Below are positions 1,446 to 49,681 of a DNA stretch of 64,000 nt, one piece after another. The notes below the pieces were generated by a model. It did not search any database, was not told the DNA's origin, and saw only the letters and a program-made list of their open reading frames with translations. How positions within the stretch are numbered: position 1 is the stretch's first letter; the number at the start of each line of letters is the position of its first letter. The position numbers were made by a program, and so were the translations under genes. Source of the stretch: Candidatus Omnitrophota bacterium (GTDB lineage: Bacteria > Omnitrophota > Gorgyraeia > Zapsychrales > Zapsychraceae). The stretch is from NCBI GenBank assembly GCA_023247445.1, contig JAHFGL010000003.1:14128-78127 (forward strand), given 5' to 3'.

Positions 1446-1586
1446 CGTCATTCTGAGCGATAGCGCACTGACTTTTCCATATTTATATTTAGATGAAGTC
1501 AGTACGTACCAACTTCATCTAAAACTATTAAGGAAAGTTGGTGCGAAGAATCTCCTGAGATCCTTCGGCTTTGCCTCAGGATGACG
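1446..1586 (+). mobile_element. MITE-like palindromic element, copy 1 (TIR + X hairpin + Y palindrome + TIR)
   Basis: cgtcattctgagcg ... cctcaggatgacg terminal inverted repeats; internal hairpin gtactgactt...aagtcagtac; palindrome ctcctgagatccttcg; near-identical copies at 25718, 39752 and 45686. Confidence 0.7.
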
Positions 1587-1613
1587 AAAAATAAGAATTA
1601 ATATATTAAGGCA

Positions 1614-3788
1614 TTGATGTTGTTTGCGCAAAACTCCAAAGATTCTTCATCCCCGTTTTCCCTTCCTGTTTTATTCTTCATCACGTTTCTCTTATGGATC
1701 TTTGCTTTTAAGGATTTTGTTTTTGACAAGATCACGCTAAGCTCGGATGCCTTGGCCTATTATGAACATTTTAAGGTTTTTACTGATGGTCTAAGGCGCG
1801 GGGTTTTCCCAATGTGGGATCCAACCTGGATCACAGGCATTCCAGAAGAATTCTTTTTGCGTCGGATGGGATCATTTAATCCCTTTATTTGGATTATTAT
1901 TATATTTAATAAAATTGGAATTCCTTACAACATTGCCTATCTTCTTTTCTTAAGTTGTTATTATTTTTTTGGCATGGTCGGATTCTATTTATTAGCCAAA
2001 CGCATAATAAAAGATTCTGCCATCGCTTTCTTGGCATATCTACTTCTGATGTTTTCTTCGCTGGGGACAAGAATGTTTGATTCCTATATTCTCCTTACCT
2101 TTGTCCCGATGGTCTGGTTTTTTTTCTTCTGCGTTGCCTTTTGTCAAAATCCGCAGCGGTTTTATTTCTTGGGCCTTATTTTTAGTCTGATGATTTTGTT
2201 TACAACCTACATCCCATTTTATTTTATAACTATCTTTTTAACATTCTTGATTTCTTTGGTGATCTTGTATTTTGCGCAATTAAAAGAGATCGCCGCAAAA
2301 GCGTTGTTTTTTATAAAGGGGAACAAAGGTTTTGTTATTTTGTGCTGTTTGTTCTTTTTCATATCTCTTTGGCCGGGCTGTTTATTTTATAAAGAAGCGC
2401 AGAAGGGGGAGATGGTATTTTTTGAGCGGCATTCGACCTCGAGCGTTTCAAACCAGGTCAGCGTTGGCATTGAAACTGTCACAAGCTGGGGAATCGAGGA
2501 AGATATTGCTTACGCGAGCGCCTTCACCGATTTGAAACGATTTAAGTTTGCCATTCTTTATATATCCTTTTTTGCCTATTTGATTTTTCTTTTGGGCATT
2601 ATTACTGATGTTAACAGAAAAATTCTGTTTCTTTTTGTCTGGGCGGGCCTGCTTATTCTAATAACGACGCCGCGTCTTAGTGGGATTTATGATTATCTTT
2701 ATCAACATGTTTTCTATTTTAAATATTTCCGGAATCTTCATTTCTTCCTGTGGCTAGTTTTACTTCCCATATTTATTCTTTTTTTATCTGGGCAATTAAA
2801 AAATTTATTATCTTTTCAACCTAAGACCAAAACCGGTCGAATTGGTTTTTTAACATTTATTACGTTAGTCCATGCTGGTTTTCTCTACTTTATCTATTCT
2901 CAGGGAAGCAATATCGCCAGCTCTTATGCAGTTGTCATTTTAAGTTGGTTGTTTCTAACGTTATATTTCTTGGGGCGGATTAAAACGTGTTATTTGCCCA
3001 TTATATTTTTGGTCATTGTGATTATCCAGCCGCTGGAGGTTTATCATTATTTATCGCGCAACTCTATCCCCAAGGTTAAAAGTTTTAAACATGTGTATGA
3101 ATCTGATTATTTGTTTCCCAGGATGATACAAACTGAAAATAAATTGATAGAAATGAAGCAAAGTTTTGCCCAGGAGATAAAGGGATTATCTCACTATGCT
3201 GAAAATAAAACGTCCAATTCTTACATTGGACTTAAGTGGATGAATCTTTTTAAGAATAATTTGAATTTAAAGATATTTGATGAATACTCGGCCTATAAGA
3301 TTGTTCTTTATGATCATGTCGAATGGATGAAAGATGACCAAGTTGATTTTGAGCGTCTGGGTAAGGCTATTGCCAACAGCGAAAACGTTGCGTTTATTTC
3401 TGAGTCGCCTCAGAAAGAGGGAGTGGGTGCTTTAGGATCATCAGCGCAAATTATTACAGCTGAATCTAAGGAGGTAAAGATTTTGAAATATGATTTTAAT
3501 GACGTGATATTAAAAACTAATCTCAATAAAGAGAAATTTTTAGTTTATAACGATAGCTATCATAGTGGTTGGCATGTGTTTATCGATGGGAAAGAGGCGC
3601 CCTTATTTCGAACGAATGTTGCCTTTAAAGGTGTTTGGGTGCCCGCGGGAGAACATCAGGTATGGTTTCGCTTTGGCACAGCGCTTGATTATTTTCGAAA
3701 TTATTTTCTTCTTATGATGTTTTATGCCGTTTTTATTTATTTATTATTTCTGGGAAAGAATTTGTATTCTCAAAAAGTGATTAATTAA
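1614..3788 (+). CDS. polytopic membrane protein, YfhO-like GT-C glycosyltransferase family (assignment tentative); paralog of 4713-6950
   Basis: 724 aa, many TM segments; C-terminal LVYNDSYHSGWHVFIDGKEAPLFRTNVAFKGVWVPAGEHQVWFRF resembles the YfhO C-terminal signature; about 60% identical by eye to the downstream copy. Confidence 0.45.
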   Translation: MMLFAQNSKDSSSPFSLPVLFFITFLLWIFAFKDFVFDKITLSSDALAYYEHFKVFTDGLRRGVFPMWDPTWITGIPEEFFLRRMGSFNPFIWIIIIFNKIGIPYNIAYLLFLSCYYFFGMVGFYLLAKRIIKDSAIAFLAYLLLMFSSLGTRMFDSYILLTFVPMVWFFFFCVAFCQNPQRFYFLGLIFSLMILFTTYIPFYFITIFLTFLISLVILYFAQLKEIAAKALFFIKGNKGFVILCCLFFFISLWPGCLFYKEAQKGEMVFFERHSTSSVSNQVSVGIETVTSWGIEEDIAYASAFTDLKRFKFAILYISFFAYLIFLLGIITDVNRKILFLFVWAGLLILITTPRLSGIYDYLYQHVFYFKYFRNLHFFLWLVLLPIFILFLSGQLKNLLSFQPKTKTGRIGFLTFITLVHAGFLYFIYSQGSNIASSYAVVILSWLFLTLYFLGRIKTCYLPIIFLVIVIIQPLEVYHYLSRNSIPKVKSFKHVYESDYLFPRMIQTENKLIEMKQSFAQEIKGLSHYAENKTSNSYIGLKWMNLFKNNLNLKIFDEYSAYKIVLYDHVEWMKDDQVDFERLGKAIANSENVAFISESPQKEGVGALGSSAQIITAESKEVKILKYDFNDVILKTNLNKEKFLVYNDSYHSGWHVFIDGKEAPLFRTNVAFKGVWVPAGEHQVWFRFGTALDYFRNYFLLMMFYAVFIYLLFLGKNLYSQKVIN

Positions 3789-4708
3789 TGATCAAATTTT
3801 TCTCGTTTATAACTCGAAAAGTATTTTTTCTCTACATTGTAATCTTTTTTATCGCTTATCGTTTTTTGGATTATCAAAGCGTATTTGAGATTAGTCGGTT
3901 GAAAACCTTGAACCGGCTTGTGCCGCCGTCTTTTAGTGGTCTTGTCCAATATAGTCAGGGCACAGAACAGTTAAAGAAAGAGGACTTAGAAAGTTATTTG
4001 TATTATTTTAATAAAGTCATAGAATATGTTCCCTATGAGTCAGACCTGGCGGATGCGTATGGCATGTTGGGATTTTGTTACTATGCCAAGGGAGAGCCGC
4101 ACAAGGCGATTGATTTTTACAAAAAAGCCATCGGTCTTAATCCGCATTTCTTTTGGTTTCACTATAACCTTGGTCTTATTTATTACAAACAAGGCCGTTA
4201 TAAGGAAGCGATGGATAGTTTGGATCATGCTATTTCTTCAAATCCGGGAGTTATTGTTGAAGTACTGAAAACATCCAGGATTTACCGCCAGGTTATGGAG
4301 TTATCAAAGTATTCTACGCAAAACATGGACATTGGATTAAAGACAGTTTATCGCAATGCTTATTTGCTTTTGATTACGATGCATGATGCTCGTAAAGATT
4401 ATCCAAAGATGTTTGATTATGCCGGTGTTGCTATTGAGGTGAAGCTAGATGATGACGGTTTATTTTATTTTTATCAGGGATTGGCAGCCTATCGTTTGAA
4501 ATCATATAATAATGCGATTTTTGCTCTACAGGAAAGTCTTCGCCGAAACCAAAACAATGCCGACACTTTTTATTATTTTGGTTTATCATTAGATGCTGTT
4601 GGGAAAAAAGATTATGCGCAGGCCTTTTTGAAGCAAGCCGAGGTGAGAAGAAGAGTTACCCAGGGGTATTCGTTTGACCCACAGAAGGTTAATTTAAAAA
4701 TATTTTGA
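3788..4708 (+). CDS. TPR-repeat protein with N-terminal TM anchor; paralog of 6940-7863
   Basis: AYGMLGFCYYAKGEPHKAIDFYKKAIGLNPHFFWFHYNLGLIYYKQGRYKEA is a classic TPR pair; start overlaps the upstream stop (ATGA). Confidence 0.6.
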   Translation: MIKFFSFITRKVFFLYIVIFFIAYRFLDYQSVFEISRLKTLNRLVPPSFSGLVQYSQGTEQLKKEDLESYLYYFNKVIEYVPYESDLADAYGMLGFCYYAKGEPHKAIDFYKKAIGLNPHFFWFHYNLGLIYYKQGRYKEAMDSLDHAISSNPGVIVEVLKTSRIYRQVMELSKYSTQNMDIGLKTVYRNAYLLLITMHDARKDYPKMFDYAGVAIEVKLDDDGLFYFYQGLAAYRLKSYNNAIFALQESLRRNQNNADTFYYFGLSLDAVGKKDYAQAFLKQAEVRRRVTQGYSFDPQKVNLKIF

Positions 4709-4712
4709 TTGT

Positions 4713-6950
4713 ATGACTAAATATCTAAGAAAAGTTAAACAGTTTTTTCGTTTGGACAACATTGCTTTCTTGCTGTGTCTGGCGTTTTTGATTTGGTTTT
4801 ATGCTTTCCGAGGATTTTTGTTAGATAAATTGACACTCACCTCGGATGCCATGGCCTATTATGATCATTTTAAATTTTTTGCCGATGCTTTAAAGCGTGG
4901 GGTGTATCCTTTATGGGATCCAACCTTTGAGCATGGGATCCCGGTCGAGTTTTTCTTGCGTCGGATAGGTTCTTTTAATCCACTCATTCTTTTCCCATTT
5001 CTTCTTAATAAGCTTGGGATACCTCATGTTTTATCGTATTTATTTTTCTTAGGATTTTATTATTTCTTAGGGATGATTGGGTTTTATTTAATTGCCAAGA
5101 AAATCTTTAAGAATCCCGCGGTCGCCTTTGTTGCTTGTTTACTTCTTATGTTTTCTTCACTGGGGACTCGCCTATTTGATTCGTATATCTTGTTAACGTT
5201 TATTCCCATGGTATGGTTTTTTTATTTTTGCGTGTCATTTTTTGATAGGCCGCAACGATTTTATTTTATCGGCATGATTTTTACGCTAATGATTTTGTTT
5301 GTAACGTATATTCCGTTTTATTTTATTACCATTTTGGGGGCTTTTCTTATTTTGTTTGGTATCTTTTATTTTTCTCATCTTGCCAGCGTTATTAATCGTG
5401 TGAAAGAATTCTTTAAAGGTAACCGCATCTTTGGTGCCTTGTGTCTTTTAGCTTTTTTAATATCGTTATGGCCAGGATATGCGTTTTATAAAGAAACGAA
5501 AGCAGGCGGGCCCGATGCAACCTTGGGAGATAACACAGCGGAGTTTATTTTGCCGGAACGACATGCGACATCCACCTCAGATAGTCAGATCGGGGTCGGG
5601 ATCTCAACAAGTACGTCCTGGGGTATAGAAGAAGATTTGGCCTATAGTCAACACTTTCGAGATTATAAAGAAATTGGATTTGCGGTTGTGTATATCCCCA
5701 TATATGCCTTTATTTTGTTTTGGATTGGGGCTTTTGCAACAACCCAGAGAAATTTTTTCCTTCTCTTTGGGTGGGGGTGTCTTTTGTTATTTATGACGAC
5801 CCCGCGGATTACGGGTCTTTATGAATTCTTGTATGACCATGTTTTTTATTTTAAATATTTTAGAAACTTACATTTCTTCCTTTGGCTGATTTTGCTACCG
5901 CTTTTTATTCTTGTCTTGGCCCAACAATTAAAGAGTTTCTTAAATTTTAAACCACAACGACAAGCCCAGCGGCATGGATTGTTGGCTTTTCTTGCCGTGA
6001 TCCATATCGGTTTTGCAATCTTGGCCTATCTTCAAGGGCAAAATATTGTGTCAACGTATGCCGTTATCGGATTAAGCTTCGGGGTTTTGGTGGCGCATGT
6101 CTACGGATGGCTTAATCCCCGTTATTTACCTGCGTTATTTTTGCTTCTGGTGGTTACTCAACCCCTCGAGGTTTATCATTATTTGAGTAAGAACGCGGTT
6201 ATTAAAGAATATAAATATCGATACGATGAGCCAAATTATTATTTGTCTTTAGGAGCTCAATACAACGATAAAGATCTGTTTAAAGTTCAAGCTGAGAATA
6301 AGGATTTAGTAGGGAATATTGATCAGGTTGTTGATAAGAAGTCAACGCGATCTTATATCAATGTTAAATGGAAAAGTTTCCTTGAGGAAAATTTAAATTC
6401 CACCGTTTATGGGAATTATATGCTTTGTAAAGCACTTCTCTATGATCATGTTGAGTGGATTGATGATGATCATATGGATTTAGAACGTATCGGTAAGGCT
6501 TTTCAGAAATTAGAGAATACAGTCTTTGTGTCTGTTGGCAAGGGAGAGCACCCTCAGGAAGAAGGGGCTATAAAATCTGGATCCAAACCAGAGATTCTTA
6601 CGAAGGATTCAAAGAATCTCCAGATTTTAGAATCTGATTTTAATCATTTTAAAATTAAAGTTCGTTCAGATCGGCCCAAATTTCTTGTTTATAACGACAG
6701 TTATCATAGCGAATGGCAGGTTTTTGTTAATGGCCAGAAAATGCCGTTATATCGAGCGAATATAGCCTTTAAAGGTGTTTGGGTCCCCGCTGGTGAGAGT
6801 GTTGTTTATTTTCGTTATGGCTCGCCGACACGTTATTTTAGAAATTATTTGCTACTAGCGGTATTTTATAGCATGTTTATTTATTTGCTGCTGTTATGGT
6901 ATCAATTTTATAGAAAAAAATCCGGAGTAATCCATCCTCATGAAGTTTAA
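4713..6950 (+). CDS. polytopic membrane protein, YfhO-like (tentative); tandem paralog of 1614-3788
   Basis: 745 aa; conserved blocks LTSDAMAYYDHFKFFADALKRGVYPLWDP, PRITGLYEFLYDHVFYFKYFRNLHFFLW and C-terminal LVYNDSYHSEWQVFVNGQKMPLYRANIAFKGVWVPAGE. Confidence 0.45.
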   Translation: MTKYLRKVKQFFRLDNIAFLLCLAFLIWFYAFRGFLLDKLTLTSDAMAYYDHFKFFADALKRGVYPLWDPTFEHGIPVEFFLRRIGSFNPLILFPFLLNKLGIPHVLSYLFFLGFYYFLGMIGFYLIAKKIFKNPAVAFVACLLLMFSSLGTRLFDSYILLTFIPMVWFFYFCVSFFDRPQRFYFIGMIFTLMILFVTYIPFYFITILGAFLILFGIFYFSHLASVINRVKEFFKGNRIFGALCLLAFLISLWPGYAFYKETKAGGPDATLGDNTAEFILPERHATSTSDSQIGVGISTSTSWGIEEDLAYSQHFRDYKEIGFAVVYIPIYAFILFWIGAFATTQRNFFLLFGWGCLLLFMTTPRITGLYEFLYDHVFYFKYFRNLHFFLWLILLPLFILVLAQQLKSFLNFKPQRQAQRHGLLAFLAVIHIGFAILAYLQGQNIVSTYAVIGLSFGVLVAHVYGWLNPRYLPALFLLLVVTQPLEVYHYLSKNAVIKEYKYRYDEPNYYLSLGAQYNDKDLFKVQAENKDLVGNIDQVVDKKSTRSYINVKWKSFLEENLNSTVYGNYMLCKALLYDHVEWIDDDHMDLERIGKAFQKLENTVFVSVGKGEHPQEEGAIKSGSKPEILTKDSKNLQILESDFNHFKIKVRSDRPKFLVYNDSYHSEWQVFVNGQKMPLYRANIAFKGVWVPAGESVVYFRYGSPTRYFRNYLLLAVFYSMFIYLLLLWYQFYRKKSGVIHPHEV

Positions 6951-7863
6951 ACCACAAATCAAATGGTTATTATTTCTTAATAGGGCGATTATTTTTTATC
7001 TTCTTTTATTTGTTGTCCTGGCGGTTTCTCTAAATCAAACCAGAACAAAATTAAAAGTTAATCTCTTGGCCCTTAATCGTTTAATGCCGTCTTTTGATTA
7101 TTTGGTTAGCTTTGAGGCAGGCGCGGCGCCTTTTAAGGCCAGTGAATTTGATAAATATGTCGACTACTATGAAAATTTTGTTAAATTCGTCCAGGATAGG
7201 CCAGAGGCGTATACGATGCTTGGGTTTTGTTATTATCATATGGGAAAAACAAAGAAGGCGATTTCATTTTATGAAAAGGCGATTAAGTTAGATCCTGATT
7301 ATTTTTGGCCTTATTACAATTTAGGATTAATTTATTTTAAAGAAGGGGATTTTGCGGGGGCAGTTAATTATCTTGGTAAGGCGGTTGATATCAGCCCAGA
7401 TTATTCTTTCAAACTTGTCCGCAATTCAAAACTTTATCGTCCCATTCAAGCGGTCAGTAGTGTTAATTCAGATTTTAAAGCTTTAAAAAAGATGAAGGTT
7501 TACTACACCTATTCTTATAATCTTTTGATTCTAAGTTATATTCAGATGGGAAATTTTCAGAAGGCTTTTGAGGCGGCCAATTTTGGGATTAATTCTAATT
7601 TTGGTCATCAAGATTTTCTTCATTATTATGCAGGGTTAGCCAATTTAAAAATGGGAAACCCTAAATTAGCCATTGTTTATTTTAGAGAATGTATAAACAA
7701 GAATAAGAATTATGTTGATGCTTACAAAGGGTTAGCCCAGGCGCTTATCGCGATGGGAGAAAAAGAGCGGGCGAAAGAGGTGACCAATGCGACCCCATTT
7801 CTATCCAAAGAAAATCCACAAGATATGTTTGACCCAAAGTTAATAAGGTTACAACTTTTTTAA
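6940..7863 (+). CDS. TPR-repeat protein with TM anchor; paralog of 3788-4708
   Basis: AYTMLGFCYYHMGKTKKAISFYEKAIKLDPDYFWPYYNLGLIYFKEGDFAGA. Confidence 0.6.
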   Translation: MKFKPQIKWLLFLNRAIIFYLLLFVVLAVSLNQTRTKLKVNLLALNRLMPSFDYLVSFEAGAAPFKASEFDKYVDYYENFVKFVQDRPEAYTMLGFCYYHMGKTKKAISFYEKAIKLDPDYFWPYYNLGLIYFKEGDFAGAVNYLGKAVDISPDYSFKLVRNSKLYRPIQAVSSVNSDFKALKKMKVYYTYSYNLLILSYIQMGNFQKAFEAANFGINSNFGHQDFLHYYAGLANLKMGNPKLAIVYFRECINKNKNYVDAYKGLAQALIAMGEKERAKEVTNATPFLSKENPQDMFDPKLIRLQLF

Positions 7864-9046: not shown

Positions 9047-10528
9047 ATGTCTGCACGATTATTTTTTCGATTTATTTTAATCATTATCCTTCCTGGAGTA
9101 TTAGCTTTTATTCTAACAACGCTGATTTGTTCCTCACAAAACACATTGGCCCATAATGGTCGATGGATTTCTACTAAAACAACTTTGCAAAAACCAGTTT
9201 CAGGTGCATTTACTTTTTTGACGACGCGTCAGGCTTTAGCCAAGAACCGATTGAATCTTGGCGCCTGGCATGGATATCAAGAAGTCATTTACAAAGATCC
9301 ACTTTCTATTAAGGATATTTCTTTTGATGTCTATTATCCAATGCCGAGTTATTTGACATTTATTTTTAATAAGGATTCTTCGGGGTTTGACGGCATTCGT
9401 TTAAGTGCGCATCCTATTTTTAAGAATATTTATTTAAAGTCGGATGAAACTGGCCAATTTTTGAAGAAGATGAATCTTCCGATGGATTCCTTGGCGCTTC
9501 ATCGTTGGCATCATGTAGCAATGGTTTGTGAAGAAGGTGGTTTGTCTTTATATGTCGATCGTTTATTGTGGGGGAAGATTTATTCCACGTGTTTGTCTGA
9601 TCGATATCTTGGATTTCGGAGTGGTAAGAAAGATATTTTGGTTGATAACGTCGTAATCCACCTAAAAGATTCTGCGACTACGATTCATGAAGACTTCTCT
9701 AATCGAGGAAGATTTATCACCATTTTGGGTGTTATATGGATCGTTGGTTGTCTTATTTCGTTTATATATAAAGGAAGAGAACTTCTTGGTTTACAAAGCC
9801 TTCTGATTCTTTTGTGCAGCTTAATTTATTTTTTTGATAATCAATTTCAAGCGCTTAGATATCCGATAGCTTCATCCTTTAAGAAACAAGAAGAGGTTTA
9901 TTGGAAAATGGCCCAAAGAGATAGGGTCTGTGATCTTTTAAGGAAACAGTATAATTTTTCAGCCCAAAATGATATTGATCGCATTTTGTTTATTGGCAGT
10001 TCACAAACTTGGGGGGCGGGAGTGCTTAAGGAAGAAGATAATTTTGTTTCGCATCTTGAGAAACACTTCAATAAAAGGAAATTTGGGAATCGAGCTGTAT
10101 CTTGTATTAATGCCGGCATCTCTGGGCTAGATGCACCAGCCCTTTTTGATTTATACGAAAAAGAATGGATCAATCTTGCGCCCGAGTGGGTTGTTATCAA
10201 TCTATCTTTTAATGATCGTCTTGATCCAAAGAAATTTGCTTTAAGTTTAAAGAAATTTATTCATTTGAATTTGGTTAAAGGAATTAAGACCATATTTGTT
10301 TTAGAAGCCACTTCACTGGAAGATGAAGAGTTGACATTTCCAGCTTATGCCGCGATGAAAGAGGTGGCCCTCAACAATAATATTCCCATTATTGATATGC
10401 ATCAATTCTTAAAAGGTCACTATGATGACGGTTTTTTGTGGTGGGACACGGTGCATTTAACCACCTTTGGACACAAATTATTGGCGGACACCTTGGCTAA
10501 AGAGTTAAGTAAAATTATTAATAAATAA
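9047..10528 (+). CDS. membrane-anchored protein with a LamG/ConA-like domain and a C-terminal SGNH/GDSL hydrolase domain
   Basis: N-terminal TM; WHHVAMVCEEGGLSLYVDRLLWG (LamG-like); ILFIGSSQTWGAGV (GDSL block I) and WWDTVHLTTFGHKLLA (DxxH block V). Confidence 0.55.
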   Translation: MSARLFFRFILIIILPGVLAFILTTLICSSQNTLAHNGRWISTKTTLQKPVSGAFTFLTTRQALAKNRLNLGAWHGYQEVIYKDPLSIKDISFDVYYPMPSYLTFIFNKDSSGFDGIRLSAHPIFKNIYLKSDETGQFLKKMNLPMDSLALHRWHHVAMVCEEGGLSLYVDRLLWGKIYSTCLSDRYLGFRSGKKDILVDNVVIHLKDSATTIHEDFSNRGRFITILGVIWIVGCLISFIYKGRELLGLQSLLILLCSLIYFFDNQFQALRYPIASSFKKQEEVYWKMAQRDRVCDLLRKQYNFSAQNDIDRILFIGSSQTWGAGVLKEEDNFVSHLEKHFNKRKFGNRAVSCINAGISGLDAPALFDLYEKEWINLAPEWVVINLSFNDRLDPKKFALSLKKFIHLNLVKGIKTIFVLEATSLEDEELTFPAYAAMKEVALNNNIPIIDMHQFLKGHYDDGFLWWDTVHLTTFGHKLLADTLAKELSKIINK

Positions 10529-10634
10529 CAAAATAGTGGCCAAAATAATCTTGCTATAAATATTCGATACATATATAATAGCGCTCCAAGTGTAGAGAAA
10601 CTATACAGTTATGTGAGGAGCAGCGTTTTAAATA

Positions 10635-10786
10635 AAATTCCAATAAACAAGTACCAAATACCAAGCAATGCACAAATCCCAATGACCAAAATTTAGTTTT
10701 GTACCTTGTTAATTGGATTTTTTTTGGTATTTGTGATTTTGGATTTGTATATTGTCTGTGATTTGGTGTTTGGGATTTGGAATTTT
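10635..10786 (+). promoter_or_regulatory. long imperfect hairpin (A/C-rich arm then G/T-rich arm) immediately upstream of the trxA RBS; copy A of a three-member family
   Basis: aaattccaataaacaagtaccaaataccaa...ttggtatttgtgattttggatttg...tgggatttggaatttt; arms are complementary (ccaaataccaa/ttggtatttgg, caaatcccaa/ttgggatttg); followed by aaaagaggagg and ATG. Confidence 0.4.
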
Positions 10787-10802
10787 AAAAGAGGAGGATT
10801 GA

Positions 10803-19990: not shown

Positions 19991-20418
19991 GGCTTTCTTC
20001 GGATTAATATCATTCCAAATTTATTTACAAACAAAGGTTCAGCATTTAATTCTTTAATTTTTTCAAGGGCCTGAAGATCGTTTTTACAGACTAAAAGAAT
20101 GAATTCATGATTTGTATTGTTGTAGTCAAGCACCGTGGGCGCCAAAATAAATTGAGCCTGAGAAAATAGTTTGTTTGATTCATCATCATTGGTGTCGCTA
20201 TAATAGCCCAAGAGGTTAATCTTTTTGGTAATGTTTTCTAATCCTAGGAATTTGCCCCCGATGACTTGATGCTTTAGATATTTTTTAAATGTTTTAATGC
20301 GGTTGACCTCGGGGATAAAGACAATAACATTAAAAATAATAATGGCCAGGAAGGAGACGATAAGAATTCTCTGGGGCAAAGATTTTGGCCAATTTATTTT
20401 AAATGAGGGCAACGTCAT
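19987..20418 (-). CDS. small single-TM protein; paralog of 23408-23869
   Basis: 143 aa; shares SQAQFILAPTVLDY / LQAQYFLAPTILEL with the 153-aa protein; 4-nt overlap with the downstream gene. Confidence 0.45.
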   Translation of the reverse strand: MTLPSFKINWPKSLPQRILIVSFLAIIIFNVIVFIPEVNRIKTFKKYLKHQVIGGKFLGLENITKKINLLGYYSDTNDDESNKLFSQAQFILAPTVLDYNNTNHEFILLVCKNDLQALEKIKELNAEPLFVNKFGMILIRRKP

Positions 20419-23869: not shown

Positions 23870-23997
23870 AATTACCCGCCGCGCATCTAATTTGAAGAGA
23901 AGTAAAACTAAAAATTAGGGCTTTCTTAAATTTATCTTAGTCAGTATAATATAGCCCGTTTAGAGACATTATTTTGTTTAGACAACAGCATTAAAAT

Positions 23998-24122
23998 AAA
24001 TTCCAATAAACAAGTACCAAATACCAAACAATCCACAAATACCAATGACCAAAAGTCATATTTAGCTTTGTAGTTTGTTAATTGGAATTTGTTTGGTATT
24101 TGAGATTTGGGATTTTGAATTT
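23998..24122 (+). promoter_or_regulatory. long imperfect hairpin element, copy B, immediately upstream of the RBS of the Gfo/Idh/MocA gene
   Basis: aaattccaataaacaagtaccaaataccaaacaatccacaaataccaa ... ttggaatttgtttggtatttgagatttgggattttgaattt, then aaaaagaggag. Confidence 0.4.
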
Positions 24123-24139
24123 AAAAAGAGGAGAAGAAG

Positions 24140-28258: not shown

Positions 28259-29120
28259 AGAAGTTAAATTCCAAATTACAAATCCAAAACCACAAACAAA
28301 TTCTAAATTCCAAACTCCAAATCATAAACGTTTTGGGCTTGGTGTTTGTTTATTGTCTGTGATTTGGAATTTGTGGTTTGTGCTTTTTCTTTCAGGTTGT
28401 GGAACTTTCGGAAATTATAATGCCGCCACGGGCCATCGAGAATTCATCGCCATCCCGACCAATCAAGAAGTTTCCATGGGGCAGGGAATTCATCAAGATA
28501 TTCTTAAGAAATATAGACTTTGTACAGATCAATCCAAGGTTCAACGAGTCGAGCGAATTGGTCTGCGGGTTGCCCAAATCTCGGACCGTCAGGATTATCA
28601 ATACCATTTTTATGTTTTAGAGAGTGATGATCTTAATGCTTTTACTACGCCGGGTGGAAGTGTTTATCTTTATACAGGGTTACTAGATAAGTTAACGACC
28701 GATGATCAAGTGGCGGCTGTTATCGCCCATGAGATCGGTCATTGCGCGGCTCGTCACACGATTAAAAAATATCAAGCGGCGCTTGGTTATCAATTGGTCG
28801 GCAACATTCTTTTAAGCCAAATTCAAGGATCCCAAGCTAAACAAGTTACTTCCTTGGGATCAAATTTAGCGATGAATCTTGTTTTTTCTGCTTATGGCCG
28901 TGGCGATGAATATGAAGCTGATCGTTTGGGTATTAAATATTTGTATTTAGCTGGATATGATTTGGAAGGGATGGTTGAAACGTTGGGGGTATTAAAGCAG
29001 GCCTCCAAAGGCTCTAAACCACCGCTTATTTTAAGCAGTCATCCCTACGTGGAAGATCGTATTGAAGAAGTGAAAAAAGAAATTGTCAAAGTCCGACAAC
29101 AATTTAAAGATGATTCGTAA
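28236..29120 (+). CDS. M48 family zinc metallopeptidase (BepA/LoiP-like) with lipoprotein-type signal; true start uncertain
   Basis: AHEIGHCAARH (HExxH), signal/lipobox LFLSGCGT; the first ~40 codons of the tracked ORF translate the hairpin repeat, so the real start is probably an in-frame TTG/GTG near 28340-28350. Confidence 0.7.
   Translation: MWLNLKDREVKFQITNPKPQTNSKFQTPNHKRFGLGVCLLSVIWNLWFVLFLSGCGTFGNYNAATGHREFIAIPTNQEVSMGQGIHQDILKKYRLCTDQSKVQRVERIGLRVAQISDRQDYQYHFYVLESDDLNAFTTPGGSVYLYTGLLDKLTTDDQVAAVIAHEIGHCAARHTIKKYQAALGYQLVGNILLSQIQGSQAKQVTSLGSNLAMNLVFSAYGRGDEYEADRLGIKYLYLAGYDLEGMVETLGVLKQASKGSKPPLILSSHPYVEDRIEEVKKEIVKVRQQFKDDS
28266..28382 (+). promoter_or_regulatory. hairpin element, copy C, overlapping the 5' end of the M48 peptidase ORF
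   Basis: aaattccaaattacaaatccaaaaccacaaacaaattc...ttggtgtttgtttattgtctgtgatttggaatttgtggtttgtg; shares tattgtctgtgatttgg exactly with copy A. Confidence 0.35.
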
Positions 29121-38972: not shown

Positions 38973-39762
38973 AATTACCAGCCTCACTAATCCAAAAGTT
39001 AAAGAACTCGTTAAACTGCGCGAAGCGGCTCAGCGAAAGAAGTCGGGGGTCATTGTCGTTGAAGGATATCGTGAAATTGAGCGTGCTATTGAAGCGAAGG
39101 TGAACTTTAAGGAATTTTATATCTGTAAATATTTTGTTAAAACGTTAGCGCAAAAAGAAACGCTTAAGAAAATCATGGCGCTTAATGTCCCGATTTATGA
39201 GACAAGCAGCGAAGTGTATGAAAAAATTTCATATGGTGACCGCAATGAAGGATTGATGGCGATTGCTCAGCCAAAGTATTCATCATTCTTCGATTTGCCA
39301 TCGAAAGACGATTTGTTTATTCTGGTTATTGAGCAGGTTGAGAAGCCTGGAAATTTGGGCGCGATCCTGCGTACTGCTGATGGCGTGGGCGTTGATGGCA
39401 TCATCGTCTGTGATGCCAAAACGGATATTTATAATCCAAATGTGATTCGTTCAAGTTTGGGAACAATTTTTTCAACTAAAGTGGTTGTTAGTTCTGTTGC
39501 CCCAACTTTTGATTTCTTAAAGTCGAAGGGAGTCAAGATTTGTGCGACGAGTCCTGATGCCGATTTTATTTATTCCAAGGCTGATTTAAAAGCGCCGGTT
39601 GCCATTGTCGTTGGCAGTGAACAGGAGGGCTTAAGTCGATTTTGGTTAAGTAAAGCGGATTTAAAGGTAAGAATTCCAATGCGTGGGAAAGCTGATTCGC
39701 TTAATGTCTCGACATCAACGGCAATTTTGCTTTATGAAGCGCTGAGACAATCGTCATCCTGA
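38962..39762 (+). CDS. TrmH/SpoU family RNA methyltransferase; its stop codon lies in the MITE TIR
   Basis: LGAILRTADGVGVDGII and VVGSEQEGLS SPOUT motifs; last codons caa tcg tca tcc tga are the MITE TIR cgtcatcctga. Confidence 0.7.
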   Translation: MLDKITSLTNPKVKELVKLREAAQRKKSGVIVVEGYREIERAIEAKVNFKEFYICKYFVKTLAQKETLKKIMALNVPIYETSSEVYEKISYGDRNEGLMAIAQPKYSSFFDLPSKDDLFILVIEQVEKPGNLGAILRTADGVGVDGIIVCDAKTDIYNPNVIRSSLGTIFSTKVVVSSVAPTFDFLKSKGVKICATSPDADFIYSKADLKAPVAIVVGSEQEGLSRFWLSKADLKVRIPMRGKADSLNVSTSTAILLYEALRQSSS

Positions 39763-39900
39763 AGGAGCAAAGCGTACTGACTTTTCCATAATTTATATTT
39801 AGATGAAGTCAGTACGTACCAACTTCCTCTAAAATATTAAAGGACAGTTGGTGCGACTGAAGGATCTCTTAAGAGATCCTTCGCTTACGCTCAGGATGAC
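39752..39900 (+). mobile_element. MITE-like element, copy 4 (full length, same orientation as copy 1)
   Basis: cgtcatcctgaaggagcaaagcgtactgacttttccataatttatatttagatgaagtcagtacgtacc...gaaggatctcttaagagatccttcgcttacgctcaggatgacg. Confidence 0.75.
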
Positions 39901-42612: not shown

Positions 42613-42678
42613 GTCATCCTGAGGAACGCAGTGACGAAGGATCTCTTAAGAGATCCTTCGCTGGCGCTCAGGATTACG
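42613..42678 (+). mobile_element. MITE-like element, copy 5 (short form: TIR + Y palindrome + TIR)
   Basis: gtcatcctgaggaacgcagtgacgaaggatctcttaagagatccttcgctggcgctcaggattacg. Confidence 0.65.
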
Positions 42679-44997: not shown

Positions 44998-47900
44998 ATG
45001 TATATTTACAAGAAAAACCAAAACTCATGTGGTAGCCGCCGGCTTATTTCAACCGTCTTACTGATAGCCTTTGGATTGACCTCATTTTTGCCTCCCAATC
45101 TTAGCTGGGCGCAGGTTGTGCCCTTAACAGGACTCAATCTTCCTATTCCGGGAACGGTCATCAATTTAAGTCCCGCCTTTATTCCCGCGCATGTCACCGG
45201 CATTGCCATTCATCCCGACGATCCATTTAAATTCGATTTTATTATTGATACCGGTGATGATCATTTAGAAGGTGAGGCGTTTAAACAGGAATCGATGAAG
45301 CTGATTAAATATTTTATGGCCTCCCTAACGGTGCCGGAGAATCAGATGTGGGTTAATCTTTCGCCATATGAAAAGAATCGTATCATTGCGGATGGACTGG
45401 GGCAGACGGAGATGGGCCGCGACATGCTTGGCCAAGATTATATTTTGAAACAATTAACGGCATCTTTAATGTCACCTGAGAATGAATGGGGACAAAAGTT
45501 TTGGGATCGTGTTCATAAAGAAGTTAAAGAAAAATATGGCAACATTGATATTCCAACGGATACGTTTAACAAAATTTGGATTCTGCCGGATAAGGCGTCG
45601 GTTTATGTTCATGACAATCGCGCGTTTGTTGTTGAGAATCATTTAAAGGTGATGTTGGAGGAAGATTACGTGGCGCTTTCTAATAGTCATCCTGAAGGAG
45701 CGAATGCGACTGAAGGATCTCCGAAGAGATCCTTCGCATCAACTTTCCTTAATGGTTTTGAGAAGAAGTTGGTACGTACTGACTTCCTCCAAATTGAATT
45801 AAGGAAAAGTCAGTACGCTGCGCTCAGGATGACGGAGCCAATCAAAGAAATTTTAAAAGAAATTCTCCTTCCCGAAATCGAGAAGGAAGTTAACAACGGC
45901 AAGAATTTTGCCCAGCTGCGACAGATTTTTTATTCAATGATTTTAGCCACGTGGTATAAACAGAATTTGAAAAAGAGCTTGTTCACCAAAAATTACGCCA
46001 ATCAAAACAAGATTGAAGGAATCGACCTTCAAGATAAAAAAATCAGTGAGAAGATTTACAACCAATATTTAGAAGCCTTCCAAAAAGGTGTCTCCAATTT
46101 AATTAAAGAAGAGTATGATCCGCAAACTCAGGAAGTTATCCCGCGCAAATATTTCTCGGGAGGAGTTCAGGGAGTCGAAGACGCGGCGATCTTGACAAGT
46201 CTGCCTTCGAGTTGGATGGAAGCTCAAATAAATCGCGATCATGCGATGGTCACCGCCGGCATCGATCCTCTCGGCCCTCAAGCTTCCGATGAGGCGATGG
46301 TGACTTATGCCGAAGGAACAGATCAACAATACCTCAAGAGGCTGGATAAGATGTTTCGGGCAATTGCTGGTTCCGCCGATGTGGATGGTTCGGCTTATAA
46401 AGATTTTCAAAGAGGAGTTTCTCAATTAATAACAGATGGCGTGATCACGGGTTTAGTTGCAAGAAGGCAAGTTTGGGATTTTATGAAATCTGTGGCCCAA
46501 GGTGTTGCGTCAGGCGATCGGACAGAATTGCAACAACTGAGATTCCTCTTGAATTCTCCCGAGGAGATTACGTTATCTCATTTTATGAGAATAAGGATTC
46601 GAAAAGAAAAAACAAGTAAACGAATGATTAGAGTTGTTCAAAGAGTCCCTGGAATGCTTGCTCATTCCCAAGCGTTGTTGCAGGACATTGTGGGTAAAAT
46701 AAAACGTAATGAGCCGGTTAAAATATGTTTTGTCTGTAATATGAATGTTCACCGCAGTGCCGTCGCCCATGTCTTAGTAATGGATCAAGCTCAAAAATTA
46801 GGAAGGACCAATGTTGAGATTGTCTCTGGCGGGACATTTGATTCAAATGAACATTTAAATTCTAAATTAAGATCTGGATTCAAGAAAATTTTAGAGGCCA
46901 GGGGTGTTGACAGCGACATCATTAATCGATTTCGTACCAGAGATGTAACTAAAGAAGATTTAGAAGATTCTCAGTTAATTGTGATTGCAGAACCAATGAA
47001 CCTAGAGAGGTTGTCAGAGTTTGAAAATGAGGTTCCAGGGTTGTATGAGAAGATGATATTTTTTACATCGATTAATCCCGTCGTAGATGCCCAGCATCCG
47101 GATCATGTGATGCCAGATCCTTATGATTCAAGTAAGATATCAGCAGAAGGGTTGGTTGATTTAATAGAACAAGAAATAATTCCGCGGTTGTTTCCAACCG
47201 ACCCCGCCCTCCAGCCTTTGGCTGGAGAGGCCTCGGCATCCCGTAAGCGGGATGACCGGGCGATGTTGACTAAAACGGAACAAACTCCTCAAGCTCTGGT
47301 TGAAGATTTAAAACGCGCTGCTGCCGAGGATCCTGGCAATATTGTGGATGTTTTGTATGACCGTGGTTTTAGAAAACCGGATGAACCATTCAACGTGTAT
47401 CTTATGATAAAGAATCATAAAGGTCCGATCTTGGATATTAGAACTGGTGAGGAGTTGCAAAATTGGCCAGCCGAGCAGTTAGTCGGCCGTCAGTGGAGAA
47501 GGGCCGACGTTTATATTAGAAAAGATGACCCAAGAGGTTTGGGAGTTTTGGTGATCGATTCTGATAATATTTTGACCGCGCGCGAAAGTCATCAATTTAG
47601 AGAAAGAAATTGGCGGGATTTGGCTCAAAAAAGAGGACTGATTGTTTATACCGGAGTCAATGCCATCAATCGTGAGTTGATAACCGCGCATCGAATTTTA
47701 AAAGAAGACGGCACGATTGTTGAAAAGGAATATGGTGATTCACCGCCATTCGACTTAAAGGTCACAAAAGAGTCAATCCTGATACGTATTGGCGATGGTG
47801 TTTTTTTTATCGAGTTGGATGAGTCGATGCTGACATACTCTGAAGACCAATGGGATAAAGTCAATCAAACGTACGAGAGCCTTCGCAAATTAGCCCAGAG

Positions 47901-49578
47901 TATTAAAGATGATCTTGATGCAAAGTTAGGGCCTGGATTTGTTGAGGAGTTAACGGGGTTAGTTGATCGATTACCCGAAAATGAAACTCAGGCCAGAGAA
48001 AGGTTAGGCGAAGATGACGCAATGAAATTGTTGGAGGACACCAACCGATTAGCCAATCTTGCTTTTGTGACAATCGATCAAATTTTAACATCATCTCATG
48101 AAAAGATTACATCATTAGGTCTTGATAATATTCTTCAGTCTGATTTAGAAAGTCCAAGGTATCCGATAAAAGAAGGATTTCGCAGCTACGACATAATTCG
48201 TGATTTTACTGAAAAATTGGGCAAGGTTAAAGGGGCTATGGATGGAATGAGTTCTCGGAATCTTAGTCGAGATACAGTTTATGGAGAATTTAATAGTTGT
48301 AAGCTTTTCTCGTCAATGGCTTTAAAAAGAATTGTAGCATTTGTCAACTTATTGGATCATGTTGTTGATCTACAAAGCGAGTCCTTTGAGAAATTTAAAG
48401 AGGAGATAAAATCAAGTACCGTATCTTTTAGAGAATCAAAAAGTTTACCCGAGTATATTTATCGATATTTTTTAATCCCGTATCAAGAAGCTTTGGCAGA
48501 GCGAGAAGCCATTGCTGAACCTATTCCCGATGAGGCGCTGTTGGCTCACCCGGAAGATTTGGTTGGGGGAGAAATAAATTTAAGATATTTGCGACGGATT
48601 CAAAAAATTGTTAATTCCAGCAAGGCTGATACAAAAAAGATCGCCATGTATGTGGGGGCTGGGGCGGATATCAGTGCTGCGCTTCTAGCGATTGATGCGA
48701 CGGACTATATTTTTATCGATCAAATTCCATTTGATACGGATAAACGAAAGGTCAGCGCCAAGACATTGGCTCGCGACATGGAAATTTATTTCCATGACAA
48801 GATGGGCAAAGGATATGGCAATTATTTGGCGATGAAGTCGGTTGGTCGGATTCGGCCATTTTTTATAAAAGAATTAGAATTGTTAGGAATTGATCCTAAG
48901 GATGTTTCAATTAAAAAAGATAAAAATAATCCAAATGTTTTTAGAATTAGTTTTGAGTATAAAGGCCAGAGGAGAACGGTTACCTATGTTGGTAATGCGG
49001 ATGCGACAAGGCCAGCCAAATTCGCCTCGCTTATTAAACGTTTGGGCCGAGCTGATTTTCTAATGATTAGAGCCGGCAATTACAGTGAGCGCAATCCAAA
49101 ACCATTATTAACGCGGACTTTTGTTATGAAACATTTAAAACCATCAGGACATCTTATTGTAGATTCCCTCGATGGGTTGACGGCCAAGGATGGACTACGT
49201 GATTTAGTTGAGCAGAAGCATTTGCGTGATGCCGTTTTAACTAGACTGGAACGCGATGGGGCGGGGTTAGGGTATGGTGATCGTTACGCCCCGCAATCAT
49301 ATATTTATATAAACAATCTCGATGAGGCGCTAGTGACGGATAAAGCAGTGACTAGTGAAGTTCCTGGTGGGATTGATTTTAATCCTGCGAATATGAATTT
49401 CAATTCAAACGGCGATAAGATTCAAATCAACTTACCGATGGCAGATCCCGCGATGCTGGGAGTAGAATCACCCGTCCGTGGTTATCAACCGGTCATTATT
49501 GAAATCACTCCGATAACAAATTTTCCGCTATTGCTCGGACTTAAAGATGAGCACGTGACGCAGATTTCTTATAACTAA
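44998..49578 (+). CDS. giant secreted multidomain protein (1526 aa) with an embedded LMW protein-tyrosine-phosphatase-like domain and an in-frame MITE
   Basis: signal peptide ...FLPPNLSWA-QV; CX5R(S) P-loop VKICFVCNMNVHRSAVAH plus PDPYDS Asp loop at about aa 570-730; possible Rossmann-like MYVGAGADISAALLAIDATDYIFIDQ near the C-terminus. Confidence 0.65.
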   Translation: MYIYKKNQNSCGSRRLISTVLLIAFGLTSFLPPNLSWAQVVPLTGLNLPIPGTVINLSPAFIPAHVTGIAIHPDDPFKFDFIIDTGDDHLEGEAFKQESMKLIKYFMASLTVPENQMWVNLSPYEKNRIIADGLGQTEMGRDMLGQDYILKQLTASLMSPENEWGQKFWDRVHKEVKEKYGNIDIPTDTFNKIWILPDKASVYVHDNRAFVVENHLKVMLEEDYVALSNSHPEGANATEGSPKRSFASTFLNGFEKKLVRTDFLQIELRKSQYAALRMTEPIKEILKEILLPEIEKEVNNGKNFAQLRQIFYSMILATWYKQNLKKSLFTKNYANQNKIEGIDLQDKKISEKIYNQYLEAFQKGVSNLIKEEYDPQTQEVIPRKYFSGGVQGVEDAAILTSLPSSWMEAQINRDHAMVTAGIDPLGPQASDEAMVTYAEGTDQQYLKRLDKMFRAIAGSADVDGSAYKDFQRGVSQLITDGVITGLVARRQVWDFMKSVAQGVASGDRTELQQLRFLLNSPEEITLSHFMRIRIRKEKTSKRMIRVVQRVPGMLAHSQALLQDIVGKIKRNEPVKICFVCNMNVHRSAVAHVLVMDQAQKLGRTNVEIVSGGTFDSNEHLNSKLRSGFKKILEARGVDSDIINRFRTRDVTKEDLEDSQLIVIAEPMNLERLSEFENEVPGLYEKMIFFTSINPVVDAQHPDHVMPDPYDSSKISAEGLVDLIEQEIIPRLFPTDPALQPLAGEASASRKRDDRAMLTKTEQTPQALVEDLKRAAAEDPGNIVDVLYDRGFRKPDEPFNVYLMIKNHKGPILDIRTGEELQNWPAEQLVGRQWRRADVYIRKDDPRGLGVLVIDSDNILTARESHQFRERNWRDLAQKRGLIVYTGVNAINRELITAHRILKEDGTIVEKEYGDSPPFDLKVTKESILIRIGDGVFFIELDESMLTYSEDQWDKVNQTYESLRKLAQSIKDDLDAKLGPGFVEELTGLVDRLPENETQARERLGEDDAMKLLEDTNRLANLAFVTIDQILTSSHEKITSLGLDNILQSDLESPRYPIKEGFRSYDIIRDFTEKLGKVKGAMDGMSSRNLSRDTVYGEFNSCKLFSSMALKRIVAFVNLLDHVVDLQSESFEKFKEEIKSSTVSFRESKSLPEYIYRYFLIPYQEALAEREAIAEPIPDEALLAHPEDLVGGEINLRYLRRIQKIVNSSKADTKKIAMYVGAGADISAALLAIDATDYIFIDQIPFDTDKRKVSAKTLARDMEIYFHDKMGKGYGNYLAMKSVGRIRPFFIKELELLGIDPKDVSIKKDKNNPNVFRISFEYKGQRRTVTYVGNADATRPAKFASLIKRLGRADFLMIRAGNYSERNPKPLLTRTFVMKHLKPSGHLIVDSLDGLTAKDGLRDLVEQKHLRDAVLTRLERDGAGLGYGDRYAPQSYIYINNLDEALVTDKAVTSEVPGGIDFNPANMNFNSNGDKIQINLPMADPAMLGVESPVRGYQPVIIEITPITNFPLLLGLKDEHVTQISYN
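45686..45834 (-). mobile_element. MITE-like element, copy 6, full length and translated in-frame inside the giant ORF
   Basis: gtcatcctgaaggagcgaatgcgactgaaggatctccgaagagatccttcgc...ggtacgtactgacttcctccaaattgaattaaggaaaagtcagtacgctgcgctcaggatgacg encodes SHPEGANATEGSPKRSFASTFLNGFEKKLVRTDFLQIELRKSQYAALRMTE. Confidence 0.7.
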
Positions 49579-49601
49579 CGTGAGTTCGGTATTTATATTT
49601 T

Positions 49602-49681
49602 GTCATCCTGAGGAACGAAGTGACGAAGGATCTCCGATTATTTTAAGTACTTTGAGATTCTTCGCTTCGCTCAGAATGACG
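49602..49681 (+). mobile_element. MITE-like element, copy 7 (short form)
   Basis: gtcatcctgaggaacgaagtgacgaaggatctccgatta...gagattcttcgcttcgctcagaatgacg. Confidence 0.65.

Follow-up and report, generated by a model that had tools for sequence, protein, structure and literature searches.

Inverted doublets of a tagged hairpin in an Omnitrophota genome, and their likeness to CGTC-tagged repeats and Ssn-related motifs

The DNA analysed here (the window) is a stretch of 64,000 nucleotides from a Candidatus Omnitrophota bacterium (contig JAHFGL010000003.1 of assembly GCA_023247445.1, positions 14,128 to 78,127), with a G+C content of ~38% and a GC skew that is positive throughout. It carries housekeeping, envelope and signalling genes only: Pfam scans of 67 of its 69 open reading frames (ORFs) of at least 70 amino acids found no transposase and no mobilising gene, in agreement with an earlier annotation made from the letters alone (the first-pass annotation). 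Between these genes, at their ends and in one case inside them, lie seven copies and a decayed remnant of a short palindromic element. We consider it probable that these copies are ORF-less inverted doublets, REPIN-like or MITE-like (MITE: miniature inverted-repeat transposable element), of a small hairpin of the kind described as CGTC-tagged repetitive extragenic palindromes (REPs) or as Ssn-related motifs (SRMs).

The repeats of the window, their hairpin and the genes they alter

The word GTCATYCTGAR occurs ten times without mismatch in the window, against 0.08 occurrences expected, and none of 100 shuffled sequences contained as many. Reading all eight intervals of the first-pass annotation confirmed its seven elements and one remnant, which are referred to below by their first positions (Table 1). 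A relaxed scan, which tolerated tag mismatches, left the apex free over 4-26 nt and used GAAGRATC, returned nine complete units versus 0-3 in Markov controls, and a stem-based scan that asked for nothing else than GTC and a 5-nt stem with its complement located 13 of the 14 arms that make up the seven copies, among them three of the four that the insert X (see below) interrupts. The arm at 42652-42677, whose tag is mutated to GTAAT, was caught by the relaxed scan and not by the stem-based one, and the decayed X-bearing right arm of the 25718 copy was identified by eye. The unit at 58599 fails the relaxed scan and is therefore counted as a remnant only. Chance similarity or an assembly artefact can be practically dismissed as the source of these repeats, given the excess over expectation, an independent ENA contig with identical gene spacing over 37-59 kb of the window, and the presence of the same unit in hundreds of unrelated assemblies.

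The element is built of a unit of 28-37 nt that folds on itself and reads Y-GTC-ATYCT-GA-GC(GNA)GC-GA-AGRAT-CTC (as an oligonucleotide, TGTCATCCTGAGCGAAGCGAAGGATCTC). Its YGTC tag is followed by ATYCT, which pairs with AGRAT in a stem of 5 bp, and by a tandem G·A mismatch; the apex is either the GCGNAGC DNA mini-hairpin, with 2 bp under a GNA triloop, or a longer form, and CTC makes up the tail. Every copy in the window pairs two non-identical units in inverted orientation, with the tags pointing outward and a spacer of 2-20 nt between them. The palindrome gaaggatctc-ttaaga-gatccttcg, previously taken for an internal module "Y", is thereby resolved into a junction, formed by the 3' halves of two inverted units and their spacer. 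The two arms of one copy differ in their apical parts (12 nt, GAACGCAGTGAC, versus 7 nt, CGCCAGC, in the 42613 copy), and each arm is therefore a hairpin of its own, not half of one long perfect palindrome.

The hairpin of the unit is real, and the case for it comes from covariation in a sample of 296 unique units from 240 loci. The search pattern through which the sample was obtained left three of the seven Watson-Crick stem pairs free, and all three covary: Y7-R23 (UA 32, CG 28), R12-Y18 (GC 43, AU 13) and Y13-R17 (CG 46, UA 5), with G-T wobbles in 3, 5 and 4 cells, respectively. Compensatory cells, in which both sides have changed, number 46, as against 15.4 +/- 7.8 in shuffles, none of 500 of which reached 46, and when the pairing register is slid only 16-53% of positions are paired. 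The apical loops are GAA, GCA, GGA or GTA, and such a GNA loop with its closing pairs makes up the GCGNAGC motif, a DNA mini-hairpin of extraordinary stability (PMC13037366). By eye, tandem G·A recurs in the longer apices. The conserved stretch of the sample has sharp limits, at position -1 (T 79%, C 18%) and past the CTC. Of the six copies folded whole as single-stranded DNA (all but 25718), five fall far below their shuffles, with z between -4.1 and -10.8, the sixth being the decayed 21954 copy.

Inverted-repeat ends of this kind had suggested MITEs with terminal inverted repeats. Classical MITEs would be deletion derivatives of an insertion sequence (IS) with a DDE transposase, mobilised in trans through their ends, as in the model case of Correia elements, which have DDE-type terminal inverted repeats and a TA duplication. 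The window copies do resemble them in being short, ORF-less, dispersed, variably present among relatives and bounded by inverted repeats, usually TG...CA in the wider sample, where T holds position -1 in 79% of units. However, no direct target-site duplication is visible beside any of the seven copies, the inner parts of the two arms differ and each arm folds alone, base pairs covary inside one arm, about two-thirds of the units found elsewhere are intact solos, and the gene found between inverted units, in three of three independent cases, encodes a GIY-YIG protein and never a DDE transposase. This makes a classical MITE extremely unlikely, and we return to the GIY-YIG gene below.

The insert X, previously described as a 45-bp hairpin, is a palindrome of ~80 nt composed of two inverted hairpins of ~40 nt (GTACTGACTT..AAGTCAGTAC followed by GTACCAACTT..AGTTGGTGC; fold z = -6.6). 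Its position is the same in all four long copies: within one arm, between CGNAGC and GAAG, bracketed by GC..GC. The arm is the left one in 1446 and 39752 but the right one in 25718 and 45686, and the apparent occurrence of X in either orientation follows from this. The central 22-mer of X is absent from 185,579 species genomes, and among metagenome contigs a degenerate form of the centre retrieved only two true relatives (L248 and L258), that of L248 lying within the apex of a different unit variant, GAAGCAATCTC. X is the only lineage-restricted part of the elements. Most metagenome matches to its centre belong to a perfect 20-nt palindrome, AAGTTGGTACGTACCAACTT, that is unrelated to X and recurs in unrelated contigs (L243 1787-5393, L241, L245, L261 and others, with six in 14 kb of L243), often with conserved flanks; this is a separate repeat family that has only the centre in common with X.

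The consequences for genes are of several kinds. The 45686 copy is translated in frame into ~50 amino acids (SHPEGANATEGSPKRSFAS...AALRMT) that stand in place of a variable linker of ~21 amino acids in the conserved N-terminal domain; eleven aligned homologs of its host, ORF 44998-49578, have 29 residues fewer exactly at the copy, behind which the conserved sequence resumes in frame. This copy is a true in-frame intragenic insertion, and the only such case in the window. Its host is a protein of 1526 amino acids from a very large Omnitrophota family (4077 matches with E <= 1e-10 among 8000 candidates scored), in which a conserved N-terminal domain of ~400 amino acids and a C-terminal motif of ~60 enclose unrelated enzyme domains (PGK, glucose-6-P isomerase, UGPase, PEP carboxykinase and methyltransferases in the family; a low-molecular-weight phosphotyrosine phosphatase in the window protein).

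The 21954 copy is also read through in frame, as QHSEPAKSEAKNLKPRKNPEILRYAQDD (residues 458-485), a linker of 28 amino acids in the 998-aa ORF 20415-23411 (-). The homologs of this ORF fall into two classes, one of ~455 amino acids matching residues 4-455 and one of ~500 matching residues 492-993, and this copy is not intragenic but sits at the junction of two genes, fusing both into one ORF. What is publicly called as one protein of 998 amino acids is really two adjacent membrane glycosyltransferase-like genes. A SpoU-type methylase gene ends within 39752, whose tag supplies its three final codons and its TGA stop (39752-39762, ..TCG TCA TCC TGA), and the copy ends 8 nt ahead of an RluB-like start codon; 42613 occupies the 77-nt gap from an ABC-F stop (42602) to an Smr start (42680).

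These sites were compared in three syntenic contigs (L266, L267 and L268), whose ABC-F proteins are 72-76% identical to that of the window. L267 lacks the element at the SpoU-RluB junction, where the gap measures 2 nt, and has ABC-F directly next to Smr; in L268 ABC-F and Smr overlap, with no element between them. Neither of these contigs holds a unit anywhere, and L266 has a single degenerate solo unit right after ABC-F. None of the three contigs has the giant ORF or the 49602 site. The empty orthologous sites are more simply read as insertion in the window lineage than as deletion in the relatives.

Spread of the unit and the GIY-YIG gene it flanks

The first-pass annotation supposed the repeat to be lineage-specific, which is not so for the unit and is upheld only by the rarity of X. 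The pattern GTCATYCTGAR-N6-16-GAAGRATCTC retrieved the unit from at least 119 species genomes of a one-genome-per-species collection, with about 20 phyla among the matches listed, and from at least 120 viral stretches in IMG/VR; BLAST located it on plasmids of Planktothrix, Calothrix, Gloeothece and Phocaeicola. The matches listed include Saccharibacteria, other Patescibacteria, Omnitrophota, Acidobacteriota, Chloroflexota, Bacillota/Clostridia, Nitrospirota, Bacteroidota, Ignavibacteria, Planctomycetota, Verrucomicrobiota, Armatimonadota, Gemmatimonadota, Cyanobacteria, Bdellovibrionota, and the alpha-, gamma-, delta- and epsilon-proteobacteria.

Outside the window roughly two-thirds of the units are solo and one-third stand in convergent doublets. 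They are intergenic in 74% of cases, though ~82% of the sampled DNA is coding ORF, and solo units lie between 33 convergent, 74 co-oriented and only 4 divergent gene pairs, without bias relative to the direction of transcription (31 co-oriented, 43 anti-oriented). The picture of a dispersed, non-autonomous palindromic family with a preference for intergenic DNA and gene ends, drawn earlier from the window alone, holds.

Such a location is also what could be expected if the units were mainly RNA elements (3'-end stabilisers, processing sites or attenuators) spread by selection, a reading compatible with an origin at the DNA level. The preference for sites downstream of genes, the rarity between divergent genes, the presence of elements within operon gaps, where they are almost certainly co-transcribed, and some G-T wobbles in the stems, read as a sign of transcription in PMC3733652, all fit it. 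Against this stand the lack of orientation bias among solo units, the lack of an Rfam family match or of the T-run of an intrinsic terminator, a near-identity across about 20 phyla that is hard to square with local regulatory selection, and the failure of the characterised partner protein, SsnA, to bind RNA (PMC11893778). We regard a primary RNA role as unlikely, since the orientation data do not support it, whilst side effects at the RNA level are possible for elements that are co-transcribed. In the Rfam search of the window only tRNA-Gln reaches the gathering score, and over the 39752 element only chance-level matches to miRNA-like hairpins appear. A hammerhead-like ribozyme was considered and dropped, as the CUGA..GAA core comes without the NGA and GAAA elements (by eye) and Rfam gives no match; resemblances to kink-turns, attC, dif and SECIS were also dropped, the unit consensus being unlike them.

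Clustering of the ORFs around units in the 240 loci brought out one small family of GIY-YIG proteins, encoded at a median distance of 5 nt from the unit; no Y1 transposase is among the recurrent gene families near units, and in viral loci the clustering returned only phage structural genes, from one related phage group. The GIY-YIG proteins consist of a single domain of 93-102 amino acids (PF01541, E ~ 1e-17), and their gene stands between two inverted units in L121 (Saccharibacteria), L218 (Omnitrophota) and L232 (Lutibacter). No other type of gene was found in that position. Their best relatives in the PDB are distant UPF0213 proteins only, and NCBIfam gives only sub-threshold matches to group I intron endonucleases.

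The association also emerges when approached from the protein. With the L218 protein as query, 6,059 homologs were obtained; many bear an Omnitrophota label, and their contigs are mostly very short. Four contigs (L269-L272) were picked by protein homology, regardless of motif. In the three from Omnitrophota (L269, L270 and L271) inverted units stand directly on both sides of the gene, whose stop codon abuts or overlaps the right unit, and a doublet just upstream of the gene in L271 aligns with window copies 49602 and 21954 across the spacer as well. In the fourth, L272 (Thermodesulfovibrio hydrogeniphilus), the gene is flanked by a covarying variant, GTCA(T/C)TGCGAG..GAAGCA(A/G)TCTC. Several unit variants surround the gene there (~10001-10291), namely GTCATTGCGAG..GAAGCAATCTC and GTCACTGCGAG..GAAGCAGTCTC, which points to a wider set of stem variants with a common tag, GAG/GAAG core and tail. 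Hairpin variants distinguished here are ATYCTGAG, ATTGCGAG, ATTCCCGCG and others.

A link to the published motifs is provided by the Omnitrophota contig L213 (nzgw330), where eight motifs match the published SRM pattern (TGTCATTCCCGCGAAAGCGGGAATCCAC), nearly identical to Neisseria NTS, the nearest of them 7 nt from a GIY-YIG gene. The unit-flanked GIY-YIG proteins are 49-63% identical to the protein encoded there (E 1e-27 to 1e-40). The same contig holds both canonical NTS-like motifs and units of the present variant, hence at least two hairpin classes coexist in one genome.

In Neisseria, SsnA is a GIY-YIG nuclease of 94 amino acids that binds NTS hairpins (CGTCATTCCCGCGMAVGCGGGAATCYRG) only as single-stranded DNA (ssDNA) and on one strand only, cleaves a few nucleotides upstream of the tag and is inactive on RNA and double-stranded DNA (PMC11893778). 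Across phyla such motifs bracket homologs of ssnA in an IS-like arrangement, NTS-ssnA-NTS, with hundreds of dispersed copies, of which, in N. meningitidis, only about 2% lie inside genes, and Chenal et al. (2025) raised, without testing it, the possibility that NTS-ssnA-NTS is a present or past mobile element (PMC11893778). In our material the putative autonomous form is a 96-aa single-domain GIY-YIG gene between two converging units, as seen in other Omnitrophota, in Saccharibacteria and in Bacteroidota, the window contributing seven gene-less copies.

By analogy with Neisseria SsnA, the following working could be proposed. In the single-stranded state each arm would fold on itself, and an Ssn-type nuclease supplied in trans would bind hairpin, tag and tail of the sense strand alone and cleave a few nucleotides 5' of the tag. 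As the sense units of a doublet point outward on opposite strands, the cut sites would bracket the element at its outer boundaries, and new copies might then arise by excision and re-ligation of ssDNA, by repair-templated copying or by recombination. What is visible in the window is the outcome: copies that precisely fill gaps between genes, donate a stop codon, fuse genes or sit in a protein loop, with empty sites in relatives. Active Ssn-dependent transposition, as the process behind it, is a possibility that we hold only tentatively. It is likewise doubtful, if conceivable, that the gene-bearing module and the gene-less doublets make up a true class of ssDNA transposable element, with the 96-aa GIY-YIG protein as 'transposase', in a variant that would be cross-phylum, spreading horizontally, still inserting in Omnitrophota and serving as a landing site for X as a second, hairpin-specific palindromic element.

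Several observations weigh against these interpretations. Four of the seven stem pairs carry no information, being set by the search pattern, and a single unit of 28 nt is no stabler than its shuffles (-1.9 kcal/mol with nearest-neighbour DNA parameters, z = 0.2), so that the case for the hairpin rests on covariation. The flanking GIY-YIG proteins are only putative members of the Ssn clade (cd10448; tblastn E < 1e-10 to N. meningitidis SsnA), their link to it running indirectly through the L213 protein. No nuclease gene is present within the 64 kb of the window, where the best tblastn E-value with five GIY-YIG proteins as queries is 0.77. The SRM pattern HGTCWYN(0-2)YYVSBRHN(0-5)WNVSBRGN(0-2)RNCYNB, which the NTS control passes, is not matched by the canonical units and has no match in the window; its head HGTCWY and tail RNCYNB fit the unit, but its stem YYVSBR does not. 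The empty sites, in relatives at ~75% protein identity, favour insertion yet are compatible with deletion in those relatives. We know of no strand-transfer or joining activity of Ssn. Finally, what Ssn has been shown to do in Neisseria is to restrict transforming ssDNA, not to transpose (PMC11893778).

If the interpretation is nevertheless correct, these elements would be rewriting gene ends, fusing genes and adding peptide loops in Omnitrophota, the window alone offering a donated stop codon, a fusion of two genes and an in-frame insert of 50 amino acids in a conserved domain. One phylum shows the gene-bearing module, the gene-less doublets and the empty sites together, the pattern to be expected of an autonomous/non-autonomous pair. 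Since the published pattern misses a variant occurring in about 20 phyla, in phage contigs and on plasmids, surveys based on it probably undercount the system. The units also account for many spurious peptides ("VILSEAKDL / HPERSEG / LRMT / AQDD") and may explain broken metagenome contigs, given that the GIY-YIG homologs are found mostly on very short ones. New hairpin-nuclease pairs are, in addition, potential ssDNA tools.

Coordinates and remaining features of the window

Table 1. Repeat copies and remaining features of the window, by position; z, fold score against shuffles.
Position	Feature	Structure	Setting	z
769-858	Three tandem 30-nt repeats	AGGGTATTAGGTGATTTGGTGATTAGGGAC and variants	Directly upstream of the next gene
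866-1270	23S-rRNA-intervening-sequence / bAvd-like gene	Four-helix bundle
1446-1586	Long doublet	Left unit 1447-1554 (+): CGTCATTCTGAG-CGATAGC-X-GC-GAAGAATCTC; 2-nt spacer; right unit 1557-1585 (-)	Intergenic: 23S-rRNA-IVP-like gene / YfhO-like gene	-6.4
1614-4708 and 4713-7863	Tandem duplicate of a gene pair	YfhO-like membrane protein + TPR protein
10628-10800	Second palindromic family
21954-22035	Short doublet	Intact left unit 21954-21980 (+); ~18-nt spacer; right unit decayed	Junction of two tandem membrane glycosyltransferase-like genes, - strand	-1.7
23991-24133	Second palindromic family
25718-25890	Long doublet	Left unit 25718-25754 (+), variant with all-Watson-Crick apex TCGTTCCGC-AAA-GCGGAACGA; ~20-nt spacer; right unit (-) with X, tag decayed (..CTCCATTAGAC)	Intergenic: hexapeptide transferase gene / GT2 gene
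28264-28397	Second palindromic family
39752-39900	Long doublet	Left unit 39753-39868 (+) with X in apex; spacer TTAA; right unit 39873-39900 (-)		-10.8 (+), -9.7 (-)
39774-39854	X of the 39752 copy	Other X inside 1446-1586, 25718-25890 and 45686-45834
42613-42678	Short doublet	Unit 42613-42645 (+); spacer TTAA; unit 42652-42677 (-), tag GTAAT		-6.0, -6.6
45686-45834	Long doublet	Left unit 45686-45721 (+); spacer CGAA; right unit 45726-45833 (-) with X	In ORF 44998-49578 (+)	-8.5
47235-47256 (-)	Mini hairpin GTCATCCCGCTTACGGGATG	Tag GTC, stem ATCCCG, 4-nt loop	Inside giant ORF
49602-49681	Short doublet	Unit 49602-49634 (+); 19-nt spacer; unit 49654-49680 (-)	Convergent genes: giant ORF stop 49578, PilZ gene end 49695	-4.1
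57886-58266	SpoVG homolog	126 aa
58599-58640 (+)	Decayed solo unit	CCATCCTGAG-23 nt-GAAGGAAAA	53 nt downstream of tRNA-Gln

The window also holds a second palindromic family, of ~130-170 nt, unrelated to the units above, with arms rich in CCAAA/TTTGG words (TAAAATTCCAATAAACAAGTACCAAATACCAA... / ...GATTTGGGATTTGGAATTTTAAAAGAGGAG). Two of its three copies end in AAAGAGGAG, resembling a ribosome-binding site, right ahead of a start codon, and a stretch like this family adjoins the X-bearing doublet in L248. The mini hairpin inside the giant ORF looks like a canonical NTS/CGTC-1 motif and, with a stem of only 6 bp, may be due to chance. A member of the 23S-rRNA-intervening-sequence family lies near the GIY-YIG gene of L272 as well. 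At the DNA level the YfhO/TPR duplication shows as several collinear repeats, 70-78% identical and offset by a constant ~3.1 kb. The SpoVG homolog compares with a profile of 82 positions, and because the profile match spans residues 1-118 an internal insertion is indicated; the public record gives it a weak zinc-ribbon (DZR) match.

Comparison with known systems

The unit appears to be a previously uncatalogued variant, judged by the SRM search pattern, the published table of REP peptides, Rfam and literature strings, the 29 curated SRMs of Chenal 2025 not being part of this comparison. The string search of the literature found no text printing the unit sequence (11-mers occurred only in primers and vectors, 15-mers in one unrelated paper). 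At the level of the superfamily, however, the repeats do match described ones, an outcome that the first-pass annotation had itself named as refuting its reading. These are the CGTC-tagged REPs and the Ssn-related motifs known from Neisseria, Rickettsia, Wolbachia and other bacteria.

With the SRMs and the NTS-SsnA system the unit has in common the tag (HGTCWY as published, YGTCAT here), a stem beginning with AT, the 3' end (RNCYNB as published, ATCTC here), a hairpin of 20-50 nt, dispersed and mostly intergenic copies, and the arrangement of two converging hairpins around a small GIY-YIG gene, seen outside the window. The differences lie in the stem, where ATYCT and a tandem G·A take the place of the G+C-rich ATTCCCGCG, in the apex, which measures 6-16 nt, or ~90 nt with X, and in a host range well beyond the named symbiont-rich examples. 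The tight ORF-less doublets, the in-frame insertion and the gene fusion have no counterpart in PMC11893778.

The CGTC-tagged REP superfamily of Di Nocera, De Gregorio and Rocco (2013) is defined by a CGTC or TGTC tag (with a CCTC variant), a stem of 8-9 bp starting from AT, a loop of 4-5 nt and a tail of 3 nt with consensus CCA; its members are mostly dimers, often heterodimers, placed downstream of genes, with some intragenic copies in frame, and they "apparently lack a dedicated transposase" (PMC3733652). The window repeats resemble them in the YGTC tag (CGTCAT or TGTCAT in the window; in the wider sample GTC was fixed by the search and the evidence is the free position -1, given above) and in nine stacked stem positions, A5-T25 to C13-G17, starting with AT. 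A tail of 3 nt is present too but reads CTC, not CCA, and was set by the search pattern; conservation ends right behind it. All seven window copies are inverted heterodimers and about a third of the units elsewhere stand in convergent doublets; gaps between co-oriented or convergent genes are occupied, one copy is in frame, and no transposase was found. The likeness is not complete, as stem positions 10/20 and 11/19 are G·A and not Watson-Crick, the commonest loop has 3 nt (GNA) or is much longer, and the peptides VILSEAKDL, HPERSEG, LRMT and AQDD are missing from the table of intragenic REPs in PMC3733652. The unit is set apart from CGTC-1 to CGTC-4 by description only, not by consensus sequences, and may equal one of them. 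The CGTC-2 peptide RHSELVSGS could presumably come from a related CGTCATTCTGAA..TTCAGGATCT, a back-translation that is our own guess and unpublished.

The architecture is also that of REPINs, the inverted doublets of a tagged hairpin accompanied by decayed singlets, non-autonomous and without target duplication, that depend on a trans-acting single-copy gene itself flanked by repeats, the REP-associated tyrosine transposase (RAYT) (Bertels and Rainey 2011, PMC3116915). RAYTs are Y1 HUH transposases of the IS200/IS605 type that mobilise the GTAG-tagged REPs of Pseudomonas and E. coli, and a RAYT acting likewise on the window repeats would account for the self-folding tagged hairpin, the solos and inverted doublets, the preference for the 3' side of genes and the lack of target duplication (PMC3116915, PMC3733652). 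Such mobilisation is nonetheless very unlikely, given a tag that is YGTC instead of GTAG, the absence of any Y1 transposase from the window and from the recurrent neighbours of the unit, the finding that no RAYT is flanked by CGTC repeats (PMC3733652), and a unit-flanked gene that is actually of the GIY-YIG type. REPIN-RAYT pairs are, moreover, mostly confined to lineages, whereas the unit is near-identical across phyla.

Of the two comparisons made by the first-pass annotation, that with the Rickettsia palindromic elements (RPEs) is apt, RPE-4 and RPE-6 being placed, together with Neisseria dRS3, in the CGTC-tagged superfamily (PMC3733652), and that with Correia elements is weaker. RPE-1 and Correia elements are, like the window copies, short palindromic repeats found in frame within genes (RPE) or co-transcribed at gene ends (Correia), but they are single-lineage elements of 100-150 bp, whereas what recurs here is a hairpin of 28 nt that crosses phyla.

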